Assembly: GCA_002841355.1 (NCBI GenBank)
Contig: PHFB01000002.1
Span: forward strand, 275,414-307,413
Source: Actinobacteria bacterium HGW-Actinobacteria-1
Lineage (GTDB): Bacteria > Actinomycetota > Coriobacteriia > Anaerosomatales > Anaerosomataceae
Length of the DNA: 32,000 nt
Reading direction: 5' to 3'
Position 1 is the stretch's first letter; each line of letters begins with the position of its first letter. The notes beneath the pieces are model-generated. The model saw nothing but the letters and a program-made list of their open reading frames with translations. It was not told the origin of the DNA and searched no databases. Positions 15,660-17,659 of this stretch are shown here, one piece after another. Position numbers and translations under genes: made by a program.

Positions 15660-16517
15660 CTAGAGTGTGCGCCACCAGCCAGCATGCTCGCGCACAAAGA
15701 ACTCGATCAGTCCCTGATCGAGCAGCTCGCCGAGGAATCCTTTGACGGTCGTCACCGCGAGCCAGTAGCTGGCCGGGTTCTCGGAGAGGCCGCGCGCCTC
15801 CGACACGAGCGCTACCGCCTGTTCCGTTGTCTTCTCGATGCTGAGCCTCTCGAGCAGAAGCTCCTCGATCAGTGCGAGTTGCGTCAGGTGGTAGTCGACG
15901 TGCGCTCCGACCTCGGCACGTTCGATCGGGCGGCCGTGTGCCGGGACTACCCACGAACACTCGACGCTGCGGATCGTCTCGAGCGACGTTGCGACCATGC
16001 CGGGGTCGATAGCGTACGGTAGCGGATGACGTTCCCAGAGTTCAGTAAGGTACAGCGCGTCACCCGTGAACAGCACGCCGTCGAGCGTAAGGAAGCCCGT
16101 GTGGCCCATGGTGTGGCCGGGGAGCGGAATCGTCGTGGCGCGTGAGTCGCCCCAGTCCTCCAGGTACTCGTCGACCTCGCAGGGCACGCCCCGGAAGAGT
16201 TTGGTCGTGAGCGCGTCACCTGGCTTCGCCCACGAGAACATGCCGCGGATGTTGATGTCCGGGTTCTCCACGAGCGATGCGTCATCCCGTGCGGCCGCCA
16301 CGCGGGAGCCGTTCGCACGAAGGACATGCGCAACGGCGAAGTGGTCGGCATGTCCGTGTGTGATGCCGAGCAGATCGATATCGGCCACCGCGTACGGTGC
16401 GTCGTCCTCGCATGTGTCGATGGCGAGTCCGCGCACGAACCCGGCATTGGTCAGTCCGGGAACCACGTAGGTATCGCCGACAAGGTGCCGCGCGTTGTAC
16501 GGGATGTTCGAGTCCAT
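15660..16517 (-). CDS. MBL-fold metallo-hydrolase
   Basis: The ITHGHADH metal-binding motif, PLPGHTMGH and TGDAL are present, followed by a helical C-terminal domain. It is the last gene of the abrB-like/arsM unit. Confidence 0.9.
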   Translation of the reverse strand: MDSNIPYNARHLVGDTYVVPGLTNAGFVRGLAIDTCEDDAPYAVADIDLLGITHGHADHFAVAHVLRANGSRVAAARDDASLVENPDINIRGMFSWAKPGDALTTKLFRGVPCEVDEYLEDWGDSRATTIPLPGHTMGHTGFLTLDGVLFTGDALYLTELWERHPLPYAIDPGMVATSLETIRSVECSWVVPAHGRPIERAEVGAHVDYHLTQLALIEELLLERLSIEKTTEQAVALVSEARGLSENPASYWLAVTTVKGFLGELLDQGLIEFFVREHAGWWRTL

Positions 16518-16549
16518 GGTCCGAGTATGAGCCGCCGATGCCGTTCCGA

Positions 16550-17383
16550 CTAGGCGGGGCGCACGGCATGAACCGTCACGCTGCGGAAGAGCTGCGCGGC
16601 AGCGATCGCCTCGTCATGCGTCACGCCGGCGTCAGTGCCGAACGCGGCCAGAAGGTCCTCGGCTTCATCCTCGCAGGTGGCGTACGCGGACTCCGAGACG
16701 ACGCGCACGTCCTCGAATCCAGCATCGCGTGCGGCCGCAAGGTACTCGTCCAGCACCATCGCTCCACCAAGACACGCCACGTATGCGCCCACCGAGCTGC
16801 GTGCAGCATCCGGCAGAGGAGCGGTGGTGACGATATCGGAGACCGAGATGCGTCCGCCCGGCTTGAGGACCCGCAACGCCTCGGCGAAAGCCTTCGACTT
16901 GTCTGGAACCAGATTGATGACGCAGTTCGAGATGACGAGGTCGGCCGTGCAATCCTGCACCGGTAGCGCCTCGATCTCCCCGAGACGGAACTCGACGTTG
17001 TCCATGCCCGAGCTTCGTGCGTTTCGGCGGGCGAGGGCGATCATCTCGGGTGTCATGTCGACGCCGATAACGCGCCCTTCGGGTCCTACGCGCTTGGCAG
17101 CCACGAAGCAGTCGATGCCGCCGCCGCTACCGAGGTCGACGACCACCTCGCCGGGCTGCACTGATTCGAGCGCGAGTGGATTGCCACAGCCAAGTCCCAG
17201 GTCGGCGTCGGCGGGAATGGCTGAGAGGTCGTCAGCGTTGTAGTCGGCGAGGACCTCGGCAGAACTTGCTGAAGAGCCGCAGCACGACGTACCGCCGCCG
17301 CAGCACGACGTCTTCGTCTTGGCGTGGCCTGCATACCTGTCGCGCACAGCTTCCTTGATCGATGTCGCATCGTGGTCGCTCAT
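16550..17383 (-). CDS. arsM: Arsenite S-adenosylmethionine methyltransferase ArsM
   Basis: The N-terminus KEAVRDRYAGHA is followed by the vicinal Cys pairs TSCCGGGTSCCG. Other features are DLGLGCGNP, the SAM motif VVDLGSGGGID, ISNCVINL and YVACLGGA. Confidence 0.9.
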   Translation of the reverse strand: MSDHDATSIKEAVRDRYAGHAKTKTSCCGGGTSCCGSSASSAEVLADYNADDLSAIPADADLGLGCGNPLALESVQPGEVVVDLGSGGGIDCFVAAKRVGPEGRVIGVDMTPEMIALARRNARSSGMDNVEFRLGEIEALPVQDCTADLVISNCVINLVPDKSKAFAEALRVLKPGGRISVSDIVTTAPLPDAARSSVGAYVACLGGAMVLDEYLAAARDAGFEDVRVVSESAYATCEDEAEDLLAAFGTDAGVTHDEAIAAAQLFRSVTVHAVRPA

Positions 17384-17392
17384 GATGTCTCC

Positions 17393-17659
17393 CTAGAGAA
17401 TCCCGCGCAGGGCGGGATCGATGACGGATTTCACCGCGCCGGCCATGCTTTCGGCCTTGAGCAGCGTGATGCAGCAGATGCCGCCGTCCTCGCCGCGATA
17501 GGAGACTACGGCGAGGCGATCACCCGCACCGATGCCGGCGCGCACGCGCAGGTCTTTCGGCAGCACGAACTGTCCGCGCTCGTCGATCGTCACGACGGCT
17601 TCGAGGGAGCAGCACTCGGTGGCCGGGGCGCAGGATTCGCATGATTCTGATTTGGCCAT
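17393..17659 (-). CDS. Cys-rich AbrB/MazE/SpoVT-type DNA-binding domain protein (88 aa)
   Basis: The SpoVT-AbrB-like core reads VVTIDERGQFVLPKDLRVRAGIGAGDRLAVV. The N-terminus CESCAPATECC and a later GGICC supply two vicinal Cys pairs. AAGGAG lies 6 nt before the ATG. Confidence 0.8.
   Translation of the reverse strand: MAKSESCESCAPATECCSLEAVVTIDERGQFVLPKDLRVRAGIGAGDRLAVVSYRGEDGGICCITLLKAESMAGAVKSVIDPALRGIL

Follow-up and report, generated by a model that had tools for sequence, protein, structure and literature searches.

The small AbrB-like gene that stands beside the mercury methylation genes hgcAB has been noticed before. McDaniel et al. (2020) recorded a putative transcriptional regulator directly upstream of hgcAB in 112 genomes (PMC7438021), and Zhang et al. 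(2023) treated the same gene as a prlF/abrB/mazE-like toxin-antitoxin gene ("TA gene") and putative regulator of hgcAB (PMC10349881). The only regulator tested so far is an ArsR-like one in a single Pseudodesulfovibrio strain, P. mercurii ND132, where it is co-transcribed with hgcAB and responds to S-adenosylhomocysteine (SAH) and to arsenic (bioRxiv 10.1101/2022.10.17.512643). The presence of ars genes, including arsM, near hgcAB has also been reported, in both of the earlier papers and in the ND132 study. We describe here a member of the AbrB-like family, an 88-amino-acid (aa) protein encoded in a 32,000-nucleotide (nt) stretch of contig PHFB01000002.1 from Actinobacteria bacterium HGW-Actinobacteria-1 (the window), where its gene lies between hgcB and arsM behind a promoter that carries a phased array of short sites, the proposed operator. 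In mercury biogeochemistry, neither the control of hgcAB expression nor the native function of HgcAB is a settled matter.

The 88-aa protein passes the NCBIfam equivalog model NF040962, "HgcAB-associated protein HgcC" (94.7 bits, cutoff 70), over profile positions 1 to 68 of 70. Some of its homologs already carry the NCBI name "HgcAB-associated protein," and some carry Joint Genome Institute (JGI) labels such as "antitoxin PrlF." It is a new member of a previously noticed family that is named but uncharacterised. An earlier note on this DNA, made from the sequence alone, had proposed an undescribed module whose small protein had no verified family name; the existence of NF040962 and the two published sightings of the gene overturn that part of the proposal. 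The members described in PMC7438021 and PMC10349881 and the window protein are of the same family, small and AbrB-like, encoded beside hgcAB, and proposed as regulators; in the window, the end of hgcB lies 138 nt upstream on the same strand. The described members are directly upstream of hgcA, whereas the window gene is downstream of hgcB and heads arsM, and the window hgcA is preceded instead by a TetR-family gene. An operator, a cysteine signature, and a pairing with ArsM appear in no source that we found on the described members. The name "HgcC" together with hgcA is in no paper of the searchable library, and a link of arsM with an AbrB-, MazE-, or PrlF-like gene is likewise missing from the searchable literature beyond a passing mention in PMC10349881. 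Two of the results given below are absent from that literature, namely, the dual pairing of the family with ArsM and with HgcAB, and an operator common to its members across phyla.

The gene neighborhoods of the family were compared in 80 loci (L001 to L080), the best-scoring among at least 590 matches in species-representative genomes, which with the window makes 81 loci. Context was counted from tblastn matches to the window proteins; crude open reading frame (ORF) calling gave antisense artefacts, and start codons were placed only approximately. Seventy-six of the 80 loci, together with the window, make 77 informative cases, and in every one of them the small gene immediately precedes, on the same strand, a gene for ArsM (53 cases) or HgcA (24 cases). 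An ArsM-type gene follows on the same strand in 50 of the 80 loci at a median tblastn gap of about 50 nt, with no HgcA match in the fetched sequence, whose flanks were both at least 5 kb in 28 of these loci and about 10 kb in 22. In 24 of the 80, hgcA-hgcB follows the small gene instead. The combination of hgcAB upstream and arsM downstream is confined to L001, L002, and the window. Contig ends cut three of the remaining four loci; the fourth (L027) has ArsM 9 nt downstream by tblastn. Clustering of the neighboring ORFs returned nothing besides ArsM or HgcA/HgcB in more than 8 of the 81 loci. The adjacency is strict and co-oriented, and pairings with ArsM are no rarer in the family than pairings with HgcAB. 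Among cultured carriers, Desulfoferrobacter suflitae DRH4 has two cassettes (L055 and L080), and archaea confirmed as methylators have the gene ahead of hgcA (PMC10349881). The earlier note had suspected a metal(loid)-responsive module, and a conserved linkage to metal(loid) methylation genes is what the census returned.

Metagenomic contigs from outside this sample, with annotated genes, show the same pairings. On contig L081 the small gene overlaps a 394-aa hgcA (3799 to 4983) by 4 nt, and on an independent metagenomic contig with an archaeal context it overlaps the gene of a 275-aa ArsM-type methyltransferase, also by 4 nt. The ArsM partners look genuine from their residues. The window ArsM scores 329 bits against NF008823 (cutoff 263) and aligns to the solved ArsM structure 5evj with the cysteines of GCGNP, SNCVINL, and ACLGGA retained; among 51 ArsM partners the As(III)-binding cysteines are present at 94% (Cys66), 96% (Cys154), and 96% (Cys204), and N-terminal CC pairs are kept in 80 to 88%. 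Canonical arsenic genes adjoin some of the cassettes: in one lineage (L087 to L089) the small gene/ArsM cassette is convergent with two genes of the ArsP (methylarsenite efflux permease) family and an ArsR-like HTH_20 gene, and in L018 arsR-arsD-arsA is divergent from a small gene/arsM cassette.

The two kinds of partner are interleaved within the family. In a neighbor-joining tree, which on about 90 residues has low resolution, HgcA-linked members are scattered among the ArsM-linked ones at five or more positions, and 74 of 77 nearest neighbors share their context. When 150 family representatives were labeled by their nearest labeled relative, a rough proxy whose query profile was built mostly from relatives of an ArsM-linked protein, 108 came out as ArsM-like and 31 as HgcA-like. 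The scores against NF040962 are 96 to 130 bits for ArsM-only members, those without hgcAB in fetched flanks of up to 10 kb per side as far as the contigs permit, and 118 to 128 bits for HgcA-linked ones. Because ArsM-only members score as high, the name of the model covers only part of the associations of the family, and "HgcAB-associated" will land on many proteins in arsM loci without nearby hgcAB.

Several further neighbors were seen in passing. An ArsC-like LMWPc gene recurs in seven of loci L001 to L080, an extracytoplasmic function (ECF) sigma factor gene about 1.2 kb upstream in seven, and a gene for a DGC-domain protein with four cysteines in four; a DGC-domain gene has also been reported in an ars operon of P. 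mercurii ND132 (bioRxiv 10.1101/2022.10.17.512643). A thioredoxin gene follows the cassette in an archaeal lineage (L084 to L086). A search of 72,556 plasmids by tblastn returned no copy of the small gene, and plasmid mobility was rejected.

The promoter region of the small gene stands out from the rest of the window. Positions 17660 to 17730 are 43.7% GC, compared to 65.3% for the window as a whole, and TTGCCA-17 nt-TATTCT is the only sigma-70-like match in the 5.2 kb from 15000 to 20200, in agreement with the separate AT-rich promoter that had been read from the sequence before. Of 67 related bacterial loci, 60 have TTGAC in the 120 nt that precede the small gene. An alignment across all loci of the 110 nt ahead of this gene brought out CTGA/TCAG cores with A/T-rich flanks. 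The window has five of them, TCAG at 17712-17709, CTGA at 17702-17699, TCAG at 17694-17691, CTGA at 17684-17681, and CTGA at 17676-17673, with centers at 17710, 17701, 17692, 17683, and 17675 (spacing 9, 9, 9, and 8 nt), and this is the only array of at least three phased sites within the 32 kb.

Across the loci there are on average 3.67 sites per upstream 100 nt; shuffled versions of these sequences have 0.67, and 22,751 control windows drawn from the loci have 0.75. A pair of adjacent sites at 8 to 12 nt is present at least once in 76 of 81 loci and in 2.5% of the control windows; at least two pairs are found in 56 of 81 and in 0.2%. The start-to-start spacing depends on orientation (++ 9, -- 9, +- 8, and -+ 10 nt), from which it follows that the site centers, taken at the T of CTGA, are phased strictly at 9 nt. 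A 9-nt phase that holds whatever the orientation argues for recognition of double-stranded DNA rather than for an RNA motif. Among ArsM-linked loci 89% have an array of at least three phased sites, and among HgcA-linked loci 83% do, with archaea and bacteria alike in this respect; an independent metagenomic locus has the same layout. In bacteria the first site center keeps a fixed register, at +19 to +22 or at +29 to +33 when counted from TTGAC, i.e., over the -10 box and the transcription start, and in archaea the sites flank TATA-like boxes. Of 103 arrays of at least three sites in the 1.16 Mb of loci, 69 are at the start of the small gene.

A wider regulon was considered and set aside: most of the other arrays have G/C-rich flanks and look like chance, and the sole convincing outlier, in L018, belongs to a second cassette. 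That locus, which is the same one that has small gene-hgcA-hgcB, carries between 5780 and 9200 a second array (8548 to 8585), a second small-gene start (8611), and an ArsM-like N terminus (8759), and this second copy, the one from which arsR-arsD-arsA diverges, looks truncated or frameshifted. An RNA element in the leader was also rejected, there being no Rfam family at threshold, an unremarkable folding z of -1.28, and sites in both orientations. The only Rfam match to the leader was to CRISPR-DR56 (24.1 bits against a gathering score of 35, E = 0.21). It lies exactly on the array (17680 to 17715) and most likely reflects the repeated, palindromic character of the array rather than a CRISPR repeat.

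The fold of the protein itself is of the AbrB/SpoVT type. It passes TIGR01439, the AbrB-family domain (31.1 bits, cutoff 28.3), and scores 21.3 bits against PF04014, under the cutoff of 24.7 for that model. The family profile matched the AbrB and SpoVT N-domains in the PDB weakly (E = 0.006 to 0.03). An AlphaFold2 model built from 51 sequences has a pLDDT of about 90 across residues 21 to 70, and the top Foldseek matches of this model are all swapped-hairpin DNA-binding proteins, i.e., SpoVT, AbrB, Abh, Sso7c4, and the N-domain of MazE; for 2w1t, 1yfb, 5itm, and 2ro5 the probability is 1.0 and the TM-scores, normalised to targets that are isolated N-domains, are 0.62 to 0.74. The SpoVT/AbrB swapped-hairpin core named in the earlier note is borne out by the domain model, the predicted core, and the fold matches alike. 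No match to PF01022 or PF12840, the HTH_5 and HTH_20 winged helices, was found for the 88-aa protein; the true ArsR in L018 does match both.

The note had also described the protein as rich in cysteine, with two vicinal pairs, and homologs keep these residues. The pairs are C16-C17 and C62-C63, and there are further cysteines at C7 and C10. All close homologs have C62/C63, and at least 90% of them have C17. The wider family comprises 326 clusters at 50% identity (E ≤ 1e-10), and conservation was measured in an alignment of its 150 best-scoring representatives. There C63 is conserved at 91%, C62 at 79%, C17 at 76%, and C16 at 62%, and the cysteine signature is common to the ArsM-linked and HgcA-linked groups. 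The DNA-reading loop is near-invariant in the same 150 sequences, with R38 at 100%, D26, G29, and Q30 at 99%, P34 at 98%, and K35 at 96%, which fits a half-site conserved across phyla. CC pairs occur in the partner proteins as well, at the N terminus of ArsM and near the C terminus of HgcB.

We infer that the HgcC-family protein is an autoregulatory repressor of the operon that it heads, possibly switched through its thiols by a metal(loid), and we put the probability of this reading at roughly 0.6. The protein would bind the five-site array as a dimer or higher oligomer. The array reaches from the -35/-10 spacer across the -10 box and the transcription start into the 5' leader, and its occupation would block RNA polymerase. 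Dimerisation and sequence-specific DNA binding are predicted, with indirect support from the phased CTGA array. The operon controlled in the window would be small gene-arsM, probably with readthrough into the following metallo-beta-lactamase (MBL)-fold hydrolase gene. Here the protein would control arsM and not hgcAB, since hgcAB lies upstream of the operator, next to the TetR-family gene, whose product is likely to regulate hgcAB locally in this lineage. In other lineages, hgcA-hgcB is the operon headed by a member of this family with the same operator. The most plausible trigger of derepression would be a thiol-binding metal(loid) bound by C62/C63 and C17, perhaps joined by C16, and As(III) would be the obvious candidate signal for the arsM cassette.

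Several points weigh against this account. The binding of the protein to the array is a deduction from their co-occurrence, and the 80-locus sample is biased toward the clade of the query. The 9-nt phase is shorter than the DNA helical repeat, which clouds the binding geometry. The AlphaFold2 model is of a monomer, and any joint site of C17 and C62/C63 is hypothetical. Conservation is lower at the cysteines than in the DNA-reading loop, and about 10 to 25% of the wider family lacks at least one of them, so ligand sensing by cysteine cannot be universal. Finally, the 138-nt spacer that separates hgcB from the small gene has no terminator-like structure (folding z of +0.83), so readthrough from the hgcAB promoter may add to the transcription of small gene-arsM.

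The logic proposed for the HgcC protein, a small cysteine-bearing repressor encoded first in its own operon ahead of ars or hgc genes, resembles that of ArsR/SmtB. The folds differ, a winged helix in ArsR/SmtB and an AbrB swapped hairpin in the HgcC protein, and for the latter the response to a ligand is a proposal only. The operators of ArsR are single dyads, whereas the HgcC array consists of 4-bp cores phased at 9 nt. The AbrB, SpoVT, MazE, and MraZ proteins share the fold and the looped-hinge-helix motif with the HgcC protein, and MraZ recognises short direct repeats at a spacing of about 10 nt that overlap the promoter. The HgcC protein is distinguished from these by the vicinal cysteine pairs that flank and lie within its beta-core, by a short C-terminal helix where the others have an AbrB C-domain or a toxin-binding tail, and by what would be a dedicated local target as opposed to a global regulon.

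We rate the sensing of a metal(loid) by the cysteines at somewhat below even odds. Derepression by a metal(loid) is favored because both partner systems methylate metal(loid)s, because CC pairs recur in ArsM and HgcB, and because canonical ars genes adjoin some cassettes. A local repressor whose cysteines sense redox state or hold an Fe-S cluster, or are structural, or whose signal is metabolic, such as S-adenosylmethionine (SAM) or SAH, would account for the cysteines not being universal in the family. It would also agree with the response of the P. mercurii ArsR-like hgcAB regulator to SAH as well as arsenic, and with the report of SAM as the methyl donor of HgcAB (PMC11588087), by which SAM serves both partner systems. 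Soft-metal sites, however, typically have vicinal CC pairs like these, ars genes are recurrently nearby, and 88 residues leave no room for an obvious small-molecule-binding domain, and we regard such a signal as unlikely. The conserved vicinal pairs, together with the CC pairs of ArsM and HgcB and the position of the gene, which leads the operon in every case and at times is translationally coupled to its partner, could be read as those of a metallochaperone that hands As(III) or Hg(II) to the downstream methyltransferase in the manner of ArsD to ArsA, with regulation absent or secondary. ArsD is likewise a small protein of arsenic operons with vicinal cysteine pairs, but its fold is unrelated, the HgcC protein has no match to PF06953, and the strongest conservation in the HgcC protein is in the DNA-contact residues, alongside a proposed cognate operator. 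That the DNA-reading loop is conserved above the cysteines, that the positioned, phased operator accompanies the gene in both domains of life, and that the unrelated folds of ArsM and HgcA make a common protein-protein interface unlikely all speak against a chaperone as the main function, which we consider improbable; a chaperone role in addition to regulation is possible. The reading as a type II antitoxin of the MazE/PrlF kind, under which PMC10349881 annotated and discussed the gene, is favored by the sub-cutoff match to PF04014 (21.3 bits), by the "antitoxin PrlF" labels at JGI, and by a small-gene-first layout that resembles toxin-antitoxin pairs. It is effectively refuted: in the 77 informative cases and in L081 to L089 the downstream gene is that of ArsM or HgcA and never of a toxin family, no locus has a toxin partner, and there are no plasmid copies.

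The earlier note had grouped the small gene, arsM, and the MBL-fold gene as one unit, and the tight gaps in the window, the hairpin after the MBL gene, and the presence of an MBL gene near the cassette in L002 as well would suit a conserved three-gene functional module tied to hgcAB. Synteny in the closest relatives contradicts it. Pairwise DNA comparison gives the order hgcB, MBL gene, leader-small gene-arsM, and ATP-binding cassette (ABC) transporter genes in L002, compared to hgcB, leader-small gene-arsM, MBL gene, and ABC transporter genes in the window, and L001, whose small protein is 97% identical, is without the genes for the MBL protein, the ABC transporter, the TetR-family regulator, and a 774-aa membrane protein. 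The MBL gene is thus missing from L001, has moved upstream of the cassette in L002, and occurs in no other locus, and 50 ArsM-linked loci have no hgcAB in the fetched sequence. What is intact among the window, L001, and L002 is a block of about 1.16 kb (17706 to 16548) that runs from the operator through the arsM stop codon. A three-gene module is accordingly a very poor prospect, and on gene order the MBL gene is a lineage-specific passenger outside the conserved unit. Its product matches PF00753 only (40.7 bits, cutoff 22.7), with the HxHxDH motif present as THGHADH in translation; no NCBIfam equivalog was found for it, and the solved structures are only remotely similar. Around hgcAB these close relatives differ by whole-gene insertions and deletions, at 19116 to 22024 and 12125 to 16550 of the window relative to L001 and L002. 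The upstream gene missing from L001 is that of a 774-aa ABC-2/DUF3533 membrane protein, those missing downstream are MacB-type ABC transporter genes, and the TetR-family gene that L001 lacks is present in L002.

A local repressor acting through the shared operator would have consequences beyond the window. We entertain, tentatively and with less confidence than we give to cysteine sensing itself, the broader view that HgcC proteins are an unrecognised class of AbrB-fold thiol sensors of metal(loid)s, and that one operator grammar places arsM and hgcAB under the same signal in Bacteria and Archaea. If so, As(III) or a comparable soft metal(loid) would set the level of hgcAB expression, which would support a native role of HgcAB related to metal(loid) detoxification. 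Apart from that view, the other widespread candidate regulator of hgcAB is not specific to hgcAB, being common to ArsM-type arsenite methyltransferases, and the dual pairing and an easily mutated, conserved operator make the regulation of hgcAB directly testable.

The features of the window locus are collected in Table 1. The genes form a tight run on the minus strand in the order TetR-family gene, hgcA, hgcB, 88-aa gene, arsM, and MBL-fold gene, with gaps of 9 nt between the small gene and arsM and 32 nt between arsM and the MBL gene. Both gap values agree with those noted earlier, and the profile matches for hgcA, hgcB, and arsM uphold the reading of two methylation systems side by side. The reported absence of arsR, arsB/acr3, arsC, merR, merA, and merB also stands, no match to the ArsR, ArsB/Acr3, ArsC, MerR, MerA, or MerB families being found among the approximately 31 called window genes at E ≤ 1e-6. 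As for the terminator-like hairpin past the MBL gene, the hairpin is real but its U-tract is only weak.

Table 1. Features of the hgcAB-arsM locus, in window coordinates
Feature	Position	Strand	Evidence or remark
TetR-family regulator gene	19123..19719	-	Abuts hgcA; PF00440, 68.9 bits
hgcA	18144..19121	-	NF040863, 394 bits; NVWCAAGK cap-helix motif seen in translation
hgcB	17798..18136	-	NF040864, 123 bits; end 138 nt upstream of small gene
-35-like hexamer TTGCCA, putative small gene/arsM promoter	17724..17729	-	Sigma-70-like match
-10-like hexamer TATTCT	17701..17706	-	Overlaps operator site 2
Proposed operator, five CTGA/TCAG sites	17673..17712	-	Phased array
Shine-Dalgarno AAGGAG of small gene	17666..17671	-	
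hgcC-family gene, 88 aa, ATG start	17393..17659	-	NF040962, TIGR01439, AlphaFold2 model, fold search
arsM, SAM-dependent arsenite methyltransferase, 277 aa	16550..17383	-	NF008823; starts 9 nt past stop of small gene
MBL-fold hydrolase gene, 285 aa	15660..16517	-	PF00753; HxHxDH motif
Hairpin past MBL gene, 11-bp stem	15607..15635	-	-22.1 kcal/mol, z = -2.47; weak U-tract

The window HgcA is 325 aa long. An N-terminal Cys/Sec-rich extension has been described for many HgcA proteins (bioRxiv 10.1101/2022.07.06.499078); the window protein cannot carry one, because its start is only 1 nt past the stop codon of the TetR-family gene. Elsewhere in the window, a NifQ-family protein (93 bits) is encoded at its edge on the plus strand (216 to 644) in an actinobacterial, Coriobacteriia-like context. 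An MsrA-like gene on the same strand (2045 to 2740) has an in-frame TGA (2153 to 2155) at the position of the catalytic cysteine of GCFWG (FSLG-TGA-FWGPD) and also matches a "selenoprotein MsrA helical domain" model. The gene probably encodes an MsrA with selenocysteine, in which case the organism would decode Sec.

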